IMG/VR virus record: IMGVR_UViG_3300045988_081349
Span: 1 to 41,331 of that record
Direction: 5' to 3' (one strand)
DNA from: a virus
DNA: 41,331 nt
Part shown: positions 2,866 through 18,946 of the stretch, one piece after another
Layout: each line of letters begins with the position of its first letter
Numbering within the stretch: position 1 is the stretch's first letter
The notes under the pieces: generated by a model
Told to the model about the DNA's origin: nothing
What the model saw: the letters and a program-made list of their open reading frames with translations, nothing else
Database searches by the model: none
Made by a program: the position numbers and the translations under genes

Positions 2866-3306
2866 CTATTTCAGACGCAACTCAATAAGTTCCTCTGGAT
2901 ATCCAGTACACTGACAAAATTGCTCACGGGTATATCCAGCATATTCTTGTAGCATATCATCGGCTATCAAGAGATAAGCCGCAAACTCATTGGCCTGGCG
3001 CTCTACGCGTGATGTAAGCAGTAGCGTGTGATGAGCCATAAAGCAACAGTTTTCTTTACAATGTAATAAAGCGTGTCCCAGCTCATGAGCCATTACGACC
3101 CTTAGCAGCACCTCATTGTCTAAGATATCTTCATTAATAAAAATCCATCGGATACGTTTCAGATATCGGTAATTCCCCAAAACATTCCCCATTGGAAGGA
3201 CTGCAATATGTATGCCCAGCATTTTTGCCATTTTCCAAGGGTCATTTGTTCCGCACAAGCGGATATAATAAGCGACAACTTTTTTAATATCATTGTTATA
3301 TGCCAA
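2866..3306 (-). CDS. ImmA/IrrE-family zinc metalloprotease (anti-repressor protease)
   Basis: The 146-aa product has the HEXXH motif in MAHELGHALLH. The gene lies immediately downstream of the XRE repressor in the same operon, the classic ImmR-ImmA arrangement. Confidence 0.85.
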   Translation of the reverse strand: MAYNNDIKKVVAYYIRLCGTNDPWKMAKMLGIHIAVLPMGNVLGNYRYLKRIRWIFINEDILDNEVLLRVVMAHELGHALLHCKENCCFMAHHTLLLTSRVERQANEFAAYLLIADDMLQEYAGYTREQFCQCTGYPEELIELRLK

Positions 3307-3316
3307 TTAAAATCAC

Positions 3317-3745
3317 CTACTTTTTGTTCTTGTACGGGTTGTATTTAACTTTATTCTCCTTCTTTGATTCTCTCAAAGCATACTCTATGGCATTTTCCAA
3401 AAGGATTAAAGACTTTTCGTCCATTTCAACACCATTGTAAAACAGTGGGCCGTCTTCTCCATTTCGTATTTCCTTCATTATTCGGTCTAAATCCCTCCCT
3501 ATTTCGCGTTCGTCTTTTGCGGTTAATTCAGCTTTAGTTGTCGAGATTTCCCTCTCTTCACCTGTCATTAAATAGTCAACAGTAACACCAAAATAATCGG
3601 CAATTGGTTTTATTTTTGATAAATTGGGGGCAGTTTTGTTTATTTTGCTGATGTATCCTTTACCAAAACCAAGTTGTTCTTCTAATGACTTGCTGGTAAT
3701 TCCGTTCTTTTTACATAGAAATTGAATTCTTTCTTTTACGTTCAT
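3317..3745 (-). CDS. XRE/CI-like phage repressor (ImmR-like)
   Basis: The N-terminal HTH reads KERIQFLCKKNGITSKSLEEQLGFGKGYISKI. The gene is divergent from a Cro-like gene. The ATG at 3745 is preferred over the TTG at 3760. Confidence 0.85.
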   Translation of the reverse strand: MNVKERIQFLCKKNGITSKSLEEQLGFGKGYISKINKTAPNLSKIKPIADYFGVTVDYLMTGEEREISTTKAELTAKDEREIGRDLDRIMKEIRNGEDGPLFYNGVEMDEKSLILLENAIEYALRESKKENKVKYNPYKNKK

Positions 3746-3767
3746 ATGGCCGCCTTTCAAAAAAAAG

Positions 3768-3845
3768 TTGCGAAAAAGCGCAAATTAAGCTTGACATTTG
3801 CCATAAAACGCGTATAATGAAATTAGAAGTTGCGATAAATGGCAA
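3768..3845. promoter_or_regulatory. Three operator-like 16-bp sites in the immunity intergenic region
   Basis: The sites are TTGCGAAAAAGCGCAA (3768-3783, a perfect 5-bp inverted repeat), TTGCCATAAAACGCGT (3798-3813, inside the promoter spacer) and TTGCGATAAATGGCAA (3830-3845). They are spaced about 30 bp apart. Confidence 0.55.
3791..3818 (+). promoter_or_regulatory. Rightward early promoter (PR-like)
   Basis: TTGACA (3791-3796), a 16-nt spacer, then TATAAT (3813-3818). Confidence 0.65.
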
Positions 3846-3973
3846 ATATAAAGAAAATGCGTTTGTATCTATTGTTGTGGTGACTTTATTTTACTATAAA
3901 TCGCAAAAAAAATCAATATAAATTTGTTATTTATCGCAAATTCATAAAATGCGCACAGAAAGGAGAGATGATA

Positions 3974-4165
3974 ATGGTTTATGATAACCTGAAAGAAATT
4001 TGCAAAGAAAAGCACATTACATTCCAAGAAATTGAAGTATTAGCAGGACTTGGAGCGGGGTGTATTAGCAGATGGAAAGATGGAAAAGTAAGCCCGAACA
4101 TGGATACATTAAAAAAAGTTTCGGGCGCAATAGGTGTTAAGGTTACAGACCTTATAAAGGAGTAA
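3974..4165 (+). CDS. Cro-like small XRE HTH protein
   Basis: The 63-aa product has the HTH HITFQEIEVLAGLGAGCISRWKDGK. AGGAG lies 8 nt upstream of the ATG at 3974; the ORF-track start at 3968 is too close to the RBS. Confidence 0.8.
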   Translation: MVYDNLKEICKEKHITFQEIEVLAGLGAGCISRWKDGKVSPNMDTLKKVSGAIGVKVTDLIKE

Positions 4166-4206: not shown

Positions 4207-4500
4207 ATGAAAATCACAATCAATTTGGACGAGTGCCCATGTTCCGGCGTATCTCCCAATTATGTGTATCGTTCTTTGTATATGGAGTATTGGAGTAAAT
4301 TACAAAAAATATATCAAAATCATTTGTGGGGAATGGCAACAGTCTGTGATTCAACTGCCCGAGAACTATATGCGCAGAAGACTGGGCGAAGTAAGAATGT
4401 GAAAAATTTGATACTTACATATGCAGATGCTGAAGCTTGTTTTGAATTATTCAAACAGTTTGCGGACGTGTGGAGCAAGAATTGTTTGACAAATTGTTAA
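4207..4500 (+). CDS. Hypothetical early protein
   Basis: A 97-aa ORF with RBS AAGGTGG. No motif was recognised. Its 3' end abuts an out-of-frame HTH-tail remnant (see findings). Confidence 0.5.
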   Translation: MKITINLDECPCSGVSPNYVYRSLYMEYWSKLQKIYQNHLWGMATVCDSTARELYAQKTGRSKNVKNLILTYADAEACFELFKQFADVWSKNCLTNC

Positions 4501-4561
4501 TTCTGGCCGATTACTTCGGCGTGCCGATTGAGTATTTCTTGGAAGAATAGAAGGAGGTGGT

Positions 4562-4768
4562 GTGAAGGTGACCAGATTTGATTTATTAAAGCAGTGTGAT
4601 ATTGAGCTTGCTTCTAAACTCATATATGCGCTGGGAAGAAAATTTGAGAAATCCGATGAGCTCAAGTTACATTTACTTGAATTCGTGACAGAACAAGAGC
4701 TGCAGCGAATAAACGATGCAGCCCATATGGAAGGATATCAGCCATTATCCTTTTCTTTTAAGCAATAA
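4562..4768 (+). CDS. Cassette copy A, rightward ORF (hypothetical; paralog of 16842-17042)
   Basis: A 68-aa ORF with RBS AAGGAGG. An alternative GTG start at 4568 would give MTRFDLLK, matching MTRFEALK of the paralog. The ORF overlaps the convergent ORF by 31 nt. Confidence 0.65.
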   Translation: MKVTRFDLLKQCDIELASKLIYALGRKFEKSDELKLHLLEFVTEQELQRINDAAHMEGYQPLSFSFKQ

Positions 4769-4971
4769 TAACATCCGTTGCCTTTTTTGGATGGACATAA
4801 CATTGCCGCAGCAATAAGACAGTTCATATAGGAATCATCCACCCATATATGTTCGTGTTTAATATCGTCGATATGACAAAAATCGGTTTCATTATCTAAA
4901 TCATGGATTTCGCCGGTGTTTGTGTTGAGAAGATATCGTTTTCCATTATAAGGCGATTTGTAACGACGCAT
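4738..4971 (-). CDS. Cassette copy A, leftward ORF (hypothetical H/C/CxxC zinc-motif protein; paralog of 17012-17242)
   Basis: The internal start MRRYKSPYNGKRY has RBS GGAAAGGAG, giving 77 aa. About half the residues are identical by eye to the 17012-17242 product. Conserved elements are GEIHDLDNE, C.ID.IK and NGCYYC. The longer ORF-track version (to 5238) runs through the promoter and is rejected. Confidence 0.7.
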   Translation of the reverse strand: MRRYKSPYNGKRYLLNTNTGEIHDLDNETDFCHIDDIKHEHIWVDDSYMNCLIAAAMLCPSKKGNGCYYCLKEKDNG

Positions 4972-5019
4972 AACATATTCTCCTTTCCTTGTATTTGGCG
5001 CTGCAACGCCTGTAAGTAC

Positions 5020-5048
5020 ATTATAGACAGGAGGGAAAAATAAAACAA
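5020..5048 (-). promoter_or_regulatory. Promoter of the leftward cassette ORF (copy A)
   Basis: On the minus strand: TTGTTT (5043-5048), a 17-nt spacer, then TATAAT (5020-5025). The same architecture occurs at 17290-17318. Confidence 0.6.
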
Positions 5049-5062
5049 GAGGAGGTGTAACA

Positions 5063-5290: not shown

Positions 5291-5505
5291 TGCACTACGC
5301 CACAATAAAAGACGCAGCCATATGCACTGCCATTGCTGCATCAACCGGATTCTGGCAACCCCGGGACGCACCGCAGGCAGTTATGTGTTACATATTTATA
5401 TTTGTGCTGCTGATGGTTGGATTTGAAGTAGCACGAGACCAAGGAAATAAGAGGAGGAAAAATCATGTACAAGGAAGAATTACAGGAAATATTAAAAAAG
5501 CATAA
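5290..5505 (+). CDS. Hypothetical small membrane protein
   Basis: The ATG overlaps the previous stop codon (TAATG). One hydrophobic helix is present ([15 protein letters not shown]). The ORF overlaps the next gene by 41 nt, so coding status is uncertain. Confidence 0.35.
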
Positions 5506-5893
5506 GAAATGGTTAGCCGGAGAAGATGGCGGTGTAAGAGCCGACCTGAGCGGAGCCGACCTGAGCGGAGCCGACCTGAGCGGAGCCGACCTGAGCGGAG
5601 CCGACCTGAGAGGAGCCGACCTGAGAAGAGCCGACCTGAGAGGAGCCGACCTGAGAAGAGCCGACCTGAGCGGAGCCGACCTGAGAGGAGCCGACCTGGA
5701 CTTTTCCTGCTGGCCATTGTGGTGTGGAGGTCTTGCGGTCAAGGTGTGCAAGCGTATTGCCGTGCAATTGGCATACCACTTTTGCAAGCTGGATTGTGAT
5801 GACCCAGAGTATATAGCGGCTCGTAATGCGATACTTGATTTTGCAAATCAGTTCCACCGCGTAGGTGAGTGCGGAAAACTAGAAAAAAGATAG
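5465..5893 (+). CDS. Pentapeptide-repeat protein (Qnr/MfpA-like fold class)
   Basis: A 142-aa ORF with RBS AGGAGG. About 11 consecutive ADL(S/R)(G/R) pentapeptides are present. The N-terminus [21 protein letters not shown] is typical of this family. Confidence 0.85.
5541..5700 (+). repeat. About 10.6 tandem copies of a 15-bp unit (CCGACCTGAGCGGAG and variants)
   Basis: The copies are near-perfect at the DNA level and in frame within the pentapeptide gene. All six frames are open across the repeat, which creates spurious ORFs. Confidence 0.95.
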
Positions 5894-15038: not shown

Positions 15039-15500
15039 TTGATAGACCTGAATGCCACTCAGGCCGCCATAAGAGCAGGATATAGCCCAGATACTGCACA
15101 GGAGCAAAGTTCGAGGCTGTTATCAAATGTTATGGTTAAAACGGCAGTTGATAAGGCAATGGCCGAGCGTAGCAAGCGTACTGGTATAAATCAGGATCGT
15201 GTGCTGCAGGAACTGGCTCGAATCGGATTCGCCCGGATAACAGATGTACTGGATCCTGCAACGGCAAAAATCAAGGAGGATGCATCTGACGATGATCTGG
15301 CCTGTATCCAGTCGGTCAAGATAAAGCCGAATGAGTGGGGCACGGAGAGGGAGGTAAAGCTGTGCGACAAAAAAGCGGCATTGGAGCTTATAGGTAGACA
15401 CCTGGGGATGTTTAAGGATAACCTAAGTATAAATGTTGAGACATCAGAAAAACTGGATGATATTCTGTCACAGATGGGCGGTGAAGGGCTTGAAGAGTAG
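15039..15500 (+). CDS. Terminase small subunit (Terminase_2 type)
   Basis: The product contains YLIDLNATQAAIRAGYSPDTAQEQSSRLL. The start is uncertain because family-like sequence continues upstream to 15003 (see findings). Confidence 0.85.
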   Translation: MIDLNATQAAIRAGYSPDTAQEQSSRLLSNVMVKTAVDKAMAERSKRTGINQDRVLQELARIGFARITDVLDPATAKIKEDASDDDLACIQSVKIKPNEWGTEREVKLCDKKAALELIGRHLGMFKDNLSINVETSEKLDDILSQMGGEGLEE

Positions 15501-16845
15501 CTTTCCTTTGTCGTGGAAGTATAAGGATTTTATCAACACTGTAGAAGGAGTGGACGCGGATTTTTTGGAAGGCACTACAGCTTCGGGGAAGACAACCGTG
15601 GGGGCAGGCGTAAAATTCATGCGAATGGTAAGCCGGAGCAACAAGAAACTCCACATCATTGCCTCAAAAACTACTGGTACTGCAGAGAAGAACATTATAC
15701 AGCAGGATAATGGGATTCTGGACATTCACCCCAAAGCCAGATATTACGGGAATGGAGACAAGGATTATAAGATTCCACATATCAAATTTGAGGGCAAGAT
15801 AATTTTCGTCCTGGGATACGACAACCGGGATAAATGGGAGCTGGTACTTGGTTCTCAGTTCGGCTGTGTGTACATAGATGAGATTAATACTGCCAATATA
15901 GATTTTGTCCGGGAGATATCTACCAGAAATGAATATCTGATGGCAACTCTCAACCCGGATGACCCGAATCTCCCAGTCTACAAAGAATTTATAAATCGGT
16001 CACGGCCATACAAAAAATATGCTGCGGATGTGCCGCAAGAAATAATAGATGAGTTAACAGAAGACCCAGTGCCAAAATGGAGGTACTGGTTTTTTACATT
16101 CAGGGACAATTTATCTTTAACGGAAGAGGATATCGAAAAGAAGATACGTTCCGCTCCGCCAGGGACAAAACTTTACAAGAACAAAATCCAGGGTCTGCGT
16201 GGTAAGGCGACTGGTCTGATATTCCCGAACTTCGACCGCAAGAAGCATGTAGTTACTGCTGCATGGCTAAAACAGCAGATTAAAGCCAGGAAGATAAAAT
16301 TCAAGAAGTTCACGGCTGGTCTGGATACATCCTACTCCAGCAAATCCCCGGACACTATCGCTATGATATTCCAGGGCATTACGGAGGACAGAATACTATA
16401 TACCCTTGCCGAGAAGACCTACAACAATGCTGACCTGGATGTGCCGCTGGCTCCCAGTGATACAGCTATCCGGTTCGTTGGTTTCCTAAGCCAGTGCAAG
16501 GACGAATGGGGGTTAGCACGAAATGTATTTGTGGATTGTGCGGATCAGGCAACTATCACTGAGTTACACAAATTTAAGCGTCTGTACGGATGCCTTTATA
16601 ATTTTGTGGACAGCTACAAAAGCGTTGTGATCATTGACCGCATCAATCTGCAATTGGGGTGGATACAGCAGGGCAGCTATTATGTGGTTGACACCTGCAT
16701 GGAGCATCTATCCGAACTGGAACGGTATAGCTGGGATGATGAGAAAGATGTGCCTGAGGACCGGAATGACCATACGATCAATGCTAACCAGTATGCATGG
16801 ATTCCGTACAGAGATATGATTGGATTCGAGGAGGCAGAAAGATGA
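15433..16845 (+). CDS. Terminase large subunit (PBSX-type)
   Basis: Walker A is GTTASGKTT and Walker B-like is CVYIDEIN. A C-terminal nuclease region is present. The true start is probably within 15457-15490. Confidence 0.9.
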   Translation: MLRHQKNWMIFCHRWAVKGLKSSFPLSWKYKDFINTVEGVDADFLEGTTASGKTTVGAGVKFMRMVSRSNKKLHIIASKTTGTAEKNIIQQDNGILDIHPKARYYGNGDKDYKIPHIKFEGKIIFVLGYDNRDKWELVLGSQFGCVYIDEINTANIDFVREISTRNEYLMATLNPDDPNLPVYKEFINRSRPYKKYAADVPQEIIDELTEDPVPKWRYWFFTFRDNLSLTEEDIEKKIRSAPPGTKLYKNKIQGLRGKATGLIFPNFDRKKHVVTAAWLKQQIKARKIKFKKFTAGLDTSYSSKSPDTIAMIFQGITEDRILYTLAEKTYNNADLDVPLAPSDTAIRFVGFLSQCKDEWGLARNVFVDCADQATITELHKFKRLYGCLYNFVDSYKSVVIIDRINLQLGWIQQGSYYVVDTCMEHLSELERYSWDDEKDVPEDRNDHTINANQYAWIPYRDMIGFEEAER

Positions 16846-17042
16846 CAAGATTTGAAGCACTTAAATCAGTTACAGGAGTAAGGGAGTTTTCAACTCTGAT
16901 TTGCGACATATTGAATGATAAAAAGAATGCAGACGATATTACGGAGTTTTTGGCAACAGAGTTATCAGAAGAACAGCTACAAACATTGAGGTCTGTAGCT
17001 GAATCCGGCAATTATCCATTGTCTTTAGATGGGTTGCAGTAA
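16842..17042 (+). CDS. Cassette copy B, rightward ORF (hypothetical; paralog of 4562-4768)
   Basis: The start MTRFEALK has RBS GAGGAGG and an ATGA overlap with the terminase stop, giving 66 aa. It overlaps the convergent ORF by 31 nt. Confidence 0.65.
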   Translation: MTRFEALKSVTGVREFSTLICDILNDKKNADDITEFLATELSEEQLQTLRSVAESGNYPLSLDGLQ

Positions 17043-17242
17043 TAACAACCATTTGCGCCCCTGACTGACAAAAAGGCCGCTCTTAGCGCGGCATCTTCAT
17101 AACTAGCGCAGTTTATTATGTTTTCAGGTTTGATTTCATCAATCTGACAATTGGGCATTTCATTGTCCAAATCATGAATTTCGCCGGTGGCTCTATTTAA
17201 GACATAGCGATTGCCATTAAAAGGCATTGTATATCTTCGCAT
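17012..17242 (-). CDS. Cassette copy B, leftward ORF (hypothetical H/C/CxxC zinc-motif protein; paralog of 4738-4971)
   Basis: A 76-aa ORF with RBS GGAAAGGAG. It is the only leftward gene within the late operon. Confidence 0.7.
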   Translation of the reverse strand: MRRYTMPFNGNRYVLNRATGEIHDLDNEMPNCQIDEIKPENIINCASYEDAALRAAFLSVRGANGCYYCNPSKDNG

Positions 17243-17289
17243 ATGATTTTCTCCTTTCCTTTGTACTCGGCATGCAGGCCTGTACTTTG

Positions 17290-17318
17290 ATTATAGGAGA
17301 TTTGCCATAAAATAACAA
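17290..17318 (-). promoter_or_regulatory. Promoter of the leftward cassette ORF (copy B)
   Basis: On the minus strand: TTGTTA (17313-17318), a 17-nt spacer, then TATAAT (17290-17295). Confidence 0.6.
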
Positions 17319-17332
17319 TAGGAGGCAAAGAA

Positions 17333-18946
17333 ATGAGGTGGGTACAAAAATTGAATGAAAGCATTAAGCGCGGCCTCAGAAGCTGGTTAAATGTAGTTCC
17401 TGCAAACCCGTACAGTATTCAGATAAATGAGGTATTGGACTTTGAGACCAATGCTATCCGTAACCGTATCTGGTACAGAGGTGATAGCAATGAGCTGGAG
17501 CAGATGTACCAGCAAAATCCAGAGTATGCGGATAAGTTTAAGTTTTGGGCCAGTAAATGTAGCCCTGGAATGGAAATGCGTAAAATCCATACCGGATTGC
17601 CGGGATTGATCGTACGTATATTGACCTCAGTCGTTTTGGCAGATATGAACGACTTTGAATTTGAGAATGCCAAACAGGAACAGCTCTGGAAAGAGATTGA
17701 GGAAGACAATAAATTTACAAAAAAGATGGAAAGGGCCCTGAAGGAAGTGTTATACATCGGGGACGGGGCTTTTAAAGTCACGATAGACACACAGGTAAGT
17801 GAGTATCCTATCCTGGAATGGTATCCGGGAGAACAGATAGAGATAGTCAGACGCCGGGACAGGATAAGTGAGGTGATATTTAAAACTCCTTACAAGGACC
17901 AAGGCAGGATGTATGTCCTCAATGAGCGCTATGGATACGGATACATCATCAATGAGTTGTACCTGCATGACAAGCTGGTTGATATCAAGTCAATCCCGGC
18001 TACAGCCAACCTGGCGGACTGGAAGTTTGATGAAAATATCATTCTAGCGGTGCCCCTGCAAATCTATGAATCAGCGAAATATGAAGGCCGGGGAGGCTCT
18101 ATTTTTGATGGAAAACTGGACAGCTTCGATGCATTTGACGAGGCATGGTCGCAGTGGATGGATGCACTCAGAGCCGGCAGGGCAAAAACTTATATCCCAG
18201 AATGTCTGGTGCCACACGATCCGGAGACAGGAAGGCTCATCAAGCCCAATATGTTTGACAACCGGTATTTTGCCGCAGACGGAGATATGCGTGACAAACA
18301 GCAAAATGTGATCAATACAGATCAGCCAATCATCCCCCATGAGAGTTATCTTGCAAGCTATGTCACAGCTCTGGATCTCTGCCTACAGGGGATTATCAGC
18401 CCCAGTACATTGGGTATTGACGTAAAAAAGCTGGACAATGCGGAAGCGCAGCGGGAAAAGGAGAAAGCCACTCTGTACACCAGGAACGCTATTGTGGAAG
18501 CACTACAGGAAACATTGCCTGATGTGGTGGCAACCTGCATCAATGCCTATCATGTGTTGATGAAAGAAACGATTGAGGATGTCAAGGTAAACATCCCATT
18601 TGGAGAGTACGCGAATCCGTCGTTTGAAAGCCAGGTGGAAACAGTTGGGAAAGCCAAAACACAGGGTATCATGAGTATTGAGCGCTGCGTTGAGGAGCTT
18701 TATGGTGACACACTGGATGAGCACTGCAAGCAGGAGGAGATAGCCCGGCTGAAAAAGGAACAAGGAATTGCCGAGGTGGAAGAACCGGGAATCAGGCAGG
18801 AAGCGGGAGGCTTCCAGATTGGAGGTTTGGATGAAGGTAAAAGTGGGGCCAAGAATATACCGGATGACCCGGAAGGAATACCAGGGGCTACTGGAGATGG
18901 CAAAGGAGCAGGTGCCAATGGGGATATACGCCCTGGAAAAGGCTGA
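17333..18946 (+). CDS. Portal protein (SPP1 gp6-like)
   Basis: A 537-aa ORF positioned after the terminase. It has a low-complexity Gly/Asp-rich C-terminal tail. Confidence 0.85.
   Translation: MRWVQKLNESIKRGLRSWLNVVPANPYSIQINEVLDFETNAIRNRIWYRGDSNELEQMYQQNPEYADKFKFWASKCSPGMEMRKIHTGLPGLIVRILTSVVLADMNDFEFENAKQEQLWKEIEEDNKFTKKMERALKEVLYIGDGAFKVTIDTQVSEYPILEWYPGEQIEIVRRRDRISEVIFKTPYKDQGRMYVLNERYGYGYIINELYLHDKLVDIKSIPATANLADWKFDENIILAVPLQIYESAKYEGRGGSIFDGKLDSFDAFDEAWSQWMDALRAGRAKTYIPECLVPHDPETGRLIKPNMFDNRYFAADGDMRDKQQNVINTDQPIIPHESYLASYVTALDLCLQGIISPSTLGIDVKKLDNAEAQREKEKATLYTRNAIVEALQETLPDVVATCINAYHVLMKETIEDVKVNIPFGEYANPSFESQVETVGKAKTQGIMSIERCVEELYGDTLDEHCKQEEIARLKKEQGIAEVEEPGIRQEAGGFQIGGLDEGKSGAKNIPDDPEGIPGATGDGKGAGANGDIRPGKG

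Follow-up and report, generated by a model that had tools for sequence, protein, structure and literature searches.

A small two-gene cassette occurs twice in a 41,331-nucleotide (nt) stretch of viral DNA, IMG/VR virus record IMGVR_UViG_3300045988_081349 (the whole stretch is called the window below). Its rightward open reading frame (ORF) is named P and its leftward ORF is named Z, with the suffix A or B for the copy, and in both copies the two are convergent, lying tail to tail with an overlap of 31 nt. Z and P are both real genes under purifying selection, and the explanation that best accounts for the evidence as a whole, which we put forward tentatively, is that they form a noncontiguous-operon pair like Tai/Ati or Tha/Ith, two prophage systems of immunity and counter-immunity that are compared with the cassette below.

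Under this explanation, the phage operons would be silent in a lysogen, where Z would be made from its predicted promoter and P would not. Upon induction, strong rightward transcripts (early for copy A, late for copy B) would run head-on over the Z promoter and gene, and these transcripts, as RNA antisense to Z, would lower Z while P is translated. P would most likely be a cognate protein antagonist of Z, and Z a prophage-expressed accessory or immunity factor that is otherwise harmful to the phage's own lytic growth. A-type and B-type pairs presumably do not cross-react, with one antidote supplied early and one late. P would be an antagonist rather than a cofactor because Z is found alone on chromosomes, P occurs with Z in phages only, the two are swapped as a unit, and their subtypes co-diverge. 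A previous reading of the window from its sequence had proposed that the leftward gene is on in lysogeny and the rightward gene in the lytic cycle, with antisense coupling between them; this logic does match published noncontiguous-operon pairs (PMC11087260, PMC11364771), while the timing of expression is presumed.

The gene pair and its inheritance

The features of copy A, which lies within the early rightward operon, are as follows (Shine-Dalgarno is abbreviated SD hereafter, and amino acids aa):

4568-4768, + strand: P_A, a 66-aa acidic helical partner of A-type (ORF call), with the SD GAAGGAGG upstream
4738-4971, - strand: Z_A, a 77-aa predicted zinc-binding protein with His-Cys-Cys-Cys ligands (ORF call), antisense to the early operon
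4697-4724, - strand: 3' hairpin of Z_A, a putative Z-strand-biased terminator or 3' stabiliser (fold, z-score -3.8)
4977-5015, - strand: 5' leader of Z_A, a hairpin (~5015-4991) and then the GGAAAGGAG SD (match to covariance model R1, 49.2 bits, E 5.5e-7)
5020-5048 (read 5048-5020), - strand: predicted promoter of Z_A, TTGTTT-17-TATAAT (sequence)
5050-5055, + strand: AGGAGG SD at the right end of the cassette, which serves the next rightward gene (ATG 5063) and abuts the Z -35 box

Copy B sits precisely between the genes for the large terminase (TerL) and the portal:

16842-17042, + strand: P_B, a 66-aa partner of B-type (ORF call)
17012-17242, - strand: Z_B, a 76-aa predicted zinc-binding protein, antisense between TerL and portal
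16974-17001, - strand: 3' hairpin of Z_B, 11 bp, a putative Z-strand terminator (terminator scan; fold -19.5 kcal/mol, z -3.9)
17249-17285, - strand: 5' leader hairpin of Z_B and the GGAAAGGAG SD (R1 match, 40.9 bits, E 2.7e-5)
17290-17318 (read 17318-17290), - strand: predicted promoter of Z_B, TTGTTA-17-TATAAT (promoter scan, 10/12 matches)
16846-17332, no strand: the copy B cassette as an indel of 487 bp, all from the TerL stop to the portal ATG

P_A is the fourth ORF downstream of a consensus promoter at 3791-3818, after a Cro-like gene and orf97. It has an alternative GTG start at 4562, giving the 68-aa frame (4562-4768) of the earlier description, and the GTG at 4568 (MTRF...) is the likely start because it agrees with copy B and with most homologs at position 1 of the P hidden Markov model (HMM). 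The ATG of P_B overlaps the TerL stop codon (ATGA), which makes translational coupling of P_B to TerL within the late operon probable; the same -4 spacing of the P start relative to TerL is seen again in other TerL-context loci. At the opposite end, the exit AGGAGG that had been described as handed to the next rightward gene is present in both copies and at other loci. The -35 box of Z_A is weak, with 3/6 matches, and for that reason its promoter was not listed by the promoter scan; the geometry is nonetheless the same in both copies, as had been stated. The leader hairpin of Z_A lies at or close to the predicted transcript start. Beyond the Z stop codons, the 3' hairpin of Z_A begins after 13 nt, within P_A codons (ELQ..DAA), and is followed by CTTGTTCTGT, while that of Z_B begins after 10 nt, within P_B codons (QLQTLRSVA), and is followed by TTCTTCTGAT.

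The sequence-only reading had recognised the convergent pairs and their overlap (4562-4768 with 4738-4971, and 16842-17042 with 17012-17242), and its estimate that the leftward proteins share about half their residues is confirmed at 56% identity (BLASTP E 4e-28), as is the modest DNA identity between the copies (55.8% over 518 aligned positions). It had also called the rightward proteins collinear but weaker matches. BLASTP gives no match between P_A and P_B, and their homology emerges from profiles: with the Z-overlapping tail removed, hhalign aligns the A-type and B-type P sub-alignments at 99.2% probability (E 2e-19), and P_A matches a P HMM from which the window sequences and the overlap tail had been left out (E 4e-15). 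The C-terminal "Y.PLS" shared by the two P proteins had been offered as further evidence and has to be withdrawn as an independent argument, since it is the antisense reading of the conserved "KDNG" and stop codon of Z. More exactly, the PLS of P is the antisense of the DNG-stop of Z, and the P stop codon is antisense to the CYYC codons of Z (TGT TAT TAT TGC), at Tyr-Tyr. The overlap is constant at 31 nt because the Z C-terminus is conserved and the P stop falls antisense to those codons.

The two copies had been regarded as old paralogs retained by selection, and they are better described as two cassette subtypes that were acquired separately. Z_A is 77% identical to the Z of L103, a relative that pairs with an A-type P, and 56% identical to Z_B; because the copies thus fall in differing sub-lineages, their sequences make separate acquisitions more likely than a duplication within the genome. 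Both copies are found on one IMG/VR contig.

The survey of Z took in 141 fetched loci from viral contigs and GTDB genomes (given L-numbers here), together with Ruminococcus phage RG-TP1 and the window, for a total of 143 sources and 145 Z matches. At 112 of these matches, P converges on Z and overlaps it; they reduce to 70 unique pairs, mostly from Lachnospiraceae phages and prophages, of which 53 have the 31-nt overlap. Most of the unique pairs give P its own SD and a start codon at position 1 of the P HMM. RG-TP1 carries an equivalent pair, gp49 and gp48, with a 31-nt overlap, and its P domain forms the C-terminal part of a 151-aa protein; no description of Z/P genes was found in the literature on RG-TP1 and on Lachnospiraceae prophage morons. 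The idea of an autonomous, recurring module whose leftward gene keeps its own predicted promoter, leader and ribosome-binding site extends across the 70 unique pairs, and homologs of the pair recur in convergent, overlapping form both in the early region and at the TerL-portal junction.

Both genes are regarded as real because the ratio of nonsynonymous to synonymous substitution rates (dN/dS) outside the overlap is 0.22 for Z and, for P, 0.46 in frame versus 1.15-1.28 in shifted frames, and because P has an SD and a start codon in most unique pairs. Moreover, the subtypes co-diverge, with relatives of Z_A paired with A-type P, and among the fetched loci every P stood with a Z or a Z remnant. 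It is conceivable that P and Z are two unrelated morons that share an insertion site, with an overlap that reflects genome compactness and with no functional link between them. In keeping with this idea, other antisense genes behind the same leader overlap assorted rightward ORFs, and the 31-nt overlap is set by the Z sequence alone. Such an origin is nevertheless very improbable given how regularly P accompanies Z, in early as well as late contexts, the lack of any P apart from Z or its remnant, and the joint gain, loss, swapping and subtype co-divergence of the two genes.

Insertion, exchange and the Z transcript

Insertion of the cassette is best seen in a set of 78 TerL-portal junctions from related phages whose TerL proteins are 67-83% identical. 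In 67 of them the junction is empty and the two genes abut (gap -17 to +6 nt), ten carry a P-Z cassette of ~490-500 bp, and one, in L145, holds a different 643-bp insert of the same architecture. The cassette thus sits between genes that abut in related phages, as the insertion behaviour proposed for it requires. Phage morons, a term associated with Juhala and Hendrix and the comparison of HK97 with HK022, are extra genes that bring a promoter and a terminator with them and separate two genes that adjoin each other in relatives. The P-Z cassette resembles them, being a unit inserted between such neighbours with a predicted promoter and a terminator-like hairpin (its U-tract is weak). It differs from them in being a convergent pair set against the operon, in having an exit SD, and in using a promoter and leader that are common to different cargo pairs.

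The L145 insert is instructive in this regard:

L145, 4433-5055: a 58-aa rightward ORF and a 129-aa antisense DUF2513 gene, with a 41-nt convergent overlap

The DUF2513 gene stands behind the same promoter and leader as P-Z. When L145 is compared with L149, which carries P-Z, the two are near-identical at the TerL end and again from the antisense ribosome-binding site through leader, promoter and portal, and they are unrelated in between. The boundaries of this swap therefore identify the gene pair as the exchanged unit and the promoter and leader as a fixed frame. A small ORF is paired with a DUF2513 gene again in L108, in another context.

Copy B is flanked by similar SD-ATGA segments of ~16 nt, GGAGGCAGAAAGATGA on the left (16826-16846) and GGAGGCAAAGAAATGA on the right (17316-17336). 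Such paired segments also occur in L149, L187 and L190, and empty junctions contain a single one; the pairing could be an insertion footprint or could mean that the cassette needs an SD at each end to function. The cassette keeps the translation signals of the operon: P starts on the stop codon of TerL, and the next gene is served by the AGGAGG beside the Z -35 box. The second recurrent context is the early region, where the cassette follows a Cro-type helix-turn-helix (HTH) gene and often precedes an antirepressor gene (Ant). In ~30 loci Ant comes immediately after it, and in others it precedes the portal gene. Just before copy A in the window, a short frame (4470-4550, + strand) that ends at 4550 and reads ...ELFDKLLILADYFGVPIEYFLEE up to its stop codon corresponds to the C-terminus of an XRE-type HTH protein and is preceded closely by stop codons; it resembles a truncated gene brought in with the copy A cassette, since the usual upstream neighbour of the cassette elsewhere is an XRE-type HTH gene.

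Among 83 unique regions upstream of Z, the predicted promoter has the consensus TTGnnn-17-TATA(A/C)T, and in 67 of them the ATG lies 46-52 nt from the -10 box, as judged from consensus only. A leader hairpin follows ~5 nt past the -10 box, and GAAAGGAG comes after it. The outer stem of the hairpin is TAC/GTA; a small internal loop separates it from the inner stem, which has 3-7 bp (usually 4-5) and ends in a loop, often CTGCCA. The covariance model of this leader, R1, was hand-seeded from 15 leaders, and 82 matches in the fetched loci were aligned to it; in the window, it matches the leaders of the two cassettes alone. The inner helix is 97.9% paired in the R1 alignment, with double-sided changes at all four pairs (one pair is AU in 30 sequences, GC in 16, UA in 14 and CG in 8), and its covariation score is 0.305, compared with 0.111 for shuffles (0/500 reach 0.305) and with <= 0.07 for slid partners. 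The alignment is fitted to the model, which favours structure, and the folds of individual sequences agree. RNAalifold predicted no structure from a MAFFT alignment of the leaders because that alignment is not structure-aware, and a search of Rfam around both copies, covering leader and 3' hairpin, returned nothing relevant at E <= 10.

Messenger RNA decay in Firmicutes involves RNase J, 5' stem-loops and STAB-SD elements, and by analogy the leader hairpin, at the predicted extreme 5' end of the mRNA, may be read as a stabiliser; it could also have a protein-binding or regulatory role. An integron attC-like site was rejected for the hairpin, which is too small, has no integrase to go with it and sits in the 5' untranslated region. 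A LexA/Cheo box or a palindromic operator is less likely too, given a stem that varies with compensation, asymmetric sides (a 1x2 internal loop) and a conserved loop.

At its other end, the Z transcript would include a family-wide 3' hairpin of 9-12 bp that lies 7-13 nt past the Z stop, in the P codons LQT..SIA (B-type) or ELQ..DAA (A-type). Its median folding free energy is -16.8 kcal/mol on the Z strand versus -13.1 kcal/mol on the P strand, and the Z strand is the more stable in 42 of 60 cases (Wilcoxon 9e-7). The bias arises because 47 of the 60 stems hold G.U pairs that become A.C mismatches on the P strand. As far as its sequence can tell, this arrangement fits a Z terminator or 3' stabiliser that permits rightward read-through to the portal.

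The promoter and leader had been thought private to the module, and they turn out to be common to many unrelated antisense genes. The same promoter, hairpin leader and GAAAGGAG precede at least 24 other unrelated small antisense genes, including those at the following sites, all on the Z strand:

L047 4618-4656; L081 5320-5358; L120 4615-4653 and 5486-5526: leader sites
L110 6488-6526; L093 6732-6772; L108 5072-5112: leader sites
L090 3907, 4479 and 5188; L016 5042-5079; L011 6515-6555: leader sites
L139 4227-4267; L034 6664-6704: leader sites

The cargo of these leaders includes DUF2513 proteins, a ~105-aa family (phrog_750, "LTKDADK..YK.YLERRKSG"), a YozE-like protein, membrane proteins and numerous orphans 55-90 aa long. 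In many cases a rightward ORF converges on the cargo gene and overlaps it, and none of the cargo is in PADLOC.

The existence of so many cargo genes behind one promoter and leader would also suit a cis-acting brake, in which the outward-firing Z promoter, together with its antisense RNA, would keep down leaky read-through of the early and late operons in the lysogen (into the antirepressor or portal gene, for instance), the proteins being secondary. The strong conservation of promoter, leader and 3' hairpin, and the placement of the cassette directly upstream of Ant or portal, are in keeping with such a role. A brake of this kind is an improbable explanation all the same, considering that both ORFs are under purifying selection, that the metal ligands of Z are invariant, and that cargo pairs are swapped while the promoter stays, which argues that the cargo matters.

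The two proteins and comparable systems

The zinc mini-domain suggested for the leftward proteins is supported at the level of prediction. His23, Cys32, Cys66 and Cys69 are invariant in the Z family alignment, and an AlphaFold2 (AF2) model of Z_B (predicted local distance difference test, pLDDT, 93.7) has a beta hairpin, a third strand and one helix. The top two fold matches in the PDB are the N-terminal zinc domain of E. coli Ada on DNA (1ZGW, 1U8B); they are weak (E ~0.4-0.5, template modelling score 0.45-0.48), and the metal site is judged from residues only. If the model is right, Z would share with the Ada domain a small fold of beta hairpin and helix and, in matching order, four metal ligands. 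In Ada, Cys38 is the methyl-accepting ligand; the first ligand of Z is His instead, and Z is acidic. A DNA-binding role borrowed from Ada is doubtful, the analogy being weakened by the mildly acidic character of Z (median isoelectric point, pI, 5.8).

Sequence searches lend the two proteins no characterised family, in agreement with the earlier view that neither was recognisable: nothing of the kind was found in Pfam, NCBIfam, PADLOC, PHROGs or PDB searches. Z_A and Z_B have no match in Pfam, including Ada_Zn_binding (PF02805), even at E <= 10. A Z profile against PDB sequences gave chance-level matches only, Ada not among them, and comparison with BFVD folds returned just uncharacterised viral proteins bearing the same domain. 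In PHROGs, both proteins match phrog_28292 (function unknown) over profile positions 1-77 of 77, with E 5e-36 for Z_A and E 1e-40 for Z_B. An HNH endonuclease, which the TerL-portal position might suggest, was rejected for Z, there being no Pfam match and the best folds, weak as they are, being Ada rather than HNH.

Z is part of a larger superfamily of 475 representatives at E <= 0.001, for which there is no Pfam model. Many members are stand-alone proteins of 60-80 aa, and in other cases the domain forms the C-terminal part of a diverse set of proteins, with fusion partners such as a membrane anchor and Pro-rich linker, DUF5675, transglutaminase, HD and SLT. Its only recurrent Pfam signal is PF02805, in 5 of 115 representatives and sub-threshold (best E 3.7e-4); the two matches with known bit scores (20.4 and 18.0) are under the 23-bit gathering cut-off. 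Among the many unrelated proteins that end in the Z-type zinc domain are P0089, P0101, P0120, P0123, P0124, P0133, P0135 and P0142, with the motif Y[LI]GN.NT.E[IV]HD...C.I..I..EH...GY.GC..C, often after a membrane anchor and a Pro-rich linker and sometimes in tandem.

A further clade of Z has the C-terminal tail PEHHRD, no P and no leader match, and occupies one conserved chromosomal locus:

L126, 6001-7070: solo-Z locus
L115, L122, L124, L129, L130, L131, L135, L137 and L141: further solo-Z loci

Solo Z overlaps a convergent VanY-like D,D-peptidase gene by 4 nt, and this neighbour recurs in about ten Mediterraneibacter/Lachnoclostridium metagenome-assembled genomes (MAGs). As identified by sequence motifs, the neighbours comprise DapA, DegV, the VanY-like peptidase and a two-component system. 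Solo Z looks like a host or domesticated version of Z and suggests that Z works without P outside phages; because Z occurs alone on chromosomes, P would not be a cofactor that Z needs.

P is acidic (median pI 4.6), and the AF2 model of P_B (pLDDT 92.3) has four helices, with no match among PDB folds (best E 4.3). Searches of Pfam, NCBIfam, PADLOC and PHROGs gave no family match for P. It evolves faster than Z, with dN of 0.64 versus 0.31. A second A-type P (5661-5888, - strand) was observed in L013 beside a regular P-Z pair, within 5526-5888, so that the two cassettes are in tandem.

One way in which the two proteins could conceivably act together is as a heterocomplex, such as a zinc-finger regulator with its co-factor for phage gene expression or packaging. 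The weak resemblance of the Z fold to the DNA-binding domain of Ada and the probable coupling of P_B to TerL would be in line with this. Of the explanations considered it is the least probable, since the opposite orientation and head-on promoter argue against co-expression, Z is acidic and found alone on chromosomes, and the cassette is dispensable in most related phages.

A different possibility is that the polarity is reversed: P would be a lytic-cycle factor, used in host takeover or development for example, and Z an inhibitor of it that, made by a prophage or from the chromosome, neutralises leaky or incoming P and so confers immunity to related phages, with P outrunning Z on induction. 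The same architecture would serve as its basis, the solo chromosomal Z of Mediterraneibacter MAGs could be a host anti-P factor, the higher dN of P is expected of a protein escaping an inhibitor, and P survives beside a degraded Z in L013. We consider this unlikely, if less so than the other alternatives: the absence of P from the TerL-portal junction in 67 of 78 related phages indicates that it is not an essential lytic factor, and P is never far from Z among the fetched loci.

The noncontiguous-operon explanation draws on two published precedents. In coliphage phi80, the immune gene tai, whose immunity acts by inhibiting tail assembly, lies antisense in the Q-dependent late operon, and the counter-defence gene ati adjoins it on the operon strand (PMC11364771). 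Tai is made in the lysogen, expression of Ati is inferred from a late-operon proxy, the Salmonella homologs TaiSalB and AtiSalB bind each other, and the authors predict more such pairs in noncontiguous operons (PMC11364771). Z/P shares with Tai/Ati an antisense gene in a lytic operon, a co-inherited and overlapping small gene on the operon strand (AtiEcA has 76 aa) and a position near packaging genes. The systems differ in the size of the immune protein (204 aa for TaiEcA, versus a 76-aa Z with a zinc site) and in their hosts (Proteobacteria versus Firmicutes), and the phi80 genes are divergent with a 20-nt 5' overlap, whereas Z and P converge, overlap by 31 nt at their 3' ends and have a hairpin embedded in the partner gene.

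The second precedent is tha/ith of Staphylococcus aureus prophages, a defence gene with a small overlapping antisense inhibitor in a noncontiguous operon, where mutual exclusion through convergent transcription ties immunity to the state of lysogeny or lysis (PMC11087260). Here too, a prophage gene has a small overlapping partner on the opposite strand. The arrangement is mirrored relative to Z/P: in 80alpha, the defence gene is in the cI operon and the inhibitor is nested antisense with a constitutive promoter, whereas in our cassette it is the nested gene that is predicted to be on in lysogeny. In addition, Tha is a HEPN RNase, and Z has no such domain.

Noncontiguous operons, or excludons (Saenz-Lahoya et al. 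2019 PNAS, cited in PMC11087260 and PMC11364771; PMC7154746), are defined by transcript maps and RNase III processing. Z/P shares with them a gene nested on the opposite strand, here with a predicted promoter, whose transcript would be expected to overlap that of the operon; it is known from its arrangement and consensus signals alone. Nesting is present in both copies, Z_B being placed between TerL and portal and Z_A among rightward early ORFs after a promoter with 12/12 consensus matches. Since TerL and portal abut or overlap in 67 related phages, the two must be co-transcribed, and read-through of Z_B by the operon would thus be indirectly required for portal expression.

A toxin-antitoxin-like addiction or selfish module, in which a toxic product is held in check by its partner and the overlap keeps the two genes linked, so stabilising the prophage or cassette, agrees with the movement of two small, tightly linked genes as one and with the presence of two diverged pairs in one genome. 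Type II systems have one co-transcribed, autoregulated promoter, and the earlier suggestion of a toxin and antidote fails in that classical form, as the genes are convergent rather than bicistronic and Z alone has an evident promoter. In a prophage, the antitoxin would then be missing when needed. Moreover, no toxin-antitoxin or defence family was matched in Pfam, NCBIfam or PADLOC, and solo Z is tolerated on chromosomes, all of which makes an addiction module improbable.

Several observations weigh against the noncontiguous-operon explanation as well. Scans of all four Z and P proteins against Pfam, NCBIfam and PADLOC gave nothing meaningful, and the PADLOC result is the one that bears on immunity. 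The Z and P HMMs score -2.4 to 0.2 bits against phi80 orf63 and orf64 (TaiEcA and AtiEcA), and BLASTP found nothing meaningful between them. The mild acidity of Z is unhelpful, and the co-divergence of subtypes could stem from linkage alone. The 3' hairpin is followed by a pyrimidine-rich tail, TTCTTCTG, with a weak U-tract, and for that reason termination of Z is not assured. Finally, the Z partner of the second P in L013 is degraded to a C-terminal remnant frame ending at 5684, and P, to go by this locus, can persist without an intact Z.

The moron and the noncontiguous-operon pair are already known as kinds of system, and the Z and P families are uncharacterised. The layout departs from the known cases in that the coding regions overlap convergently and the partner gene contains a strand-biased hairpin, in its entry and exit ribosome-binding sites, and in its socket of promoter and leader, which different cargo pairs share. 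If Z/P is an immunity and counter-immunity pair, it would be a new and very small system of two ~70-aa proteins, widespread in prophages of Lachnospiraceae that are abundant in the human gut (Blautia, Mediterraneibacter gnavus, Coprococcus and Lacrimispora). To our knowledge, almost nothing is known of phage-phage competition in gut Lachnospiraceae. Z/P would also be a concrete case, found by sequence, of the pairs that the Tai/Ati authors predicted. It is tempting to suggest, as a wider and more doubtful possibility, that lytic operons of Lachnospiraceae phages harbour an antisense "expression socket" (promoter, covarying 5'-terminal hairpin and strong SD) that accepts swappable pairs of a lysogeny-expressed effector and a lytic-strand antidote, with Z/P the commonest, a new immunity and counter-immunity system built on a tiny Ada-like zinc protein, and with the leader an undescribed RNA element of cis-regulatory or stabilising function. 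The cassette suggests how accessory genes can spread without breaking operons, by means of an entry and an exit SD, a putative strand-biased terminator, and a constant promoter and leader with exchangeable cargo. The leader hairpin is also a candidate new RNA motif and could help to find lysogeny-expressed genes in these phages.

The surrounding phage genome

The window comes from a temperate phage or prophage whose host belongs to the Lachnospiraceae. Blautia phage Montmirail matches it at 86% DNA identity over ~11% of the first 25 kb of the window. The principal features outside the two cassettes are:

191-1294, - strand: integrase
1764-2816, - strand: Mrr-type nuclease gene
2866-3306, - strand: ImmA-like peptidase
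3317-3760, - strand: HTH repressor
3791-3818, + strand: rightward promoter, 12/12 consensus
3968-4165, + strand: Cro-like HTH
15039-15500, + strand: small terminase
15433-16845, + strand: large terminase (TerL), by PHROG terminase families
17333-18946, + strand: portal

TerL is recognised solely by PHROG terminase families, through its C-terminal half, with no Pfam match at E <= 0.001. In the lysogeny module, the gene at 1764-2816 encodes a 350-aa protein with an Mrr_cat restriction-endonuclease domain (E 1e-31), flanked by the integrase on one side and by the ImmA-like and repressor genes on the other, and it is likely to be a prophage-encoded defence gene. In the early operon, a gene at 5465-5893 (+ strand) encodes a 142-aa pentapeptide-repeat protein (Pfam Pentapeptide, E 2e-30) that contains a run of near-perfect repeats and might be a candidate for a DNA mimic or an anti-defence protein.

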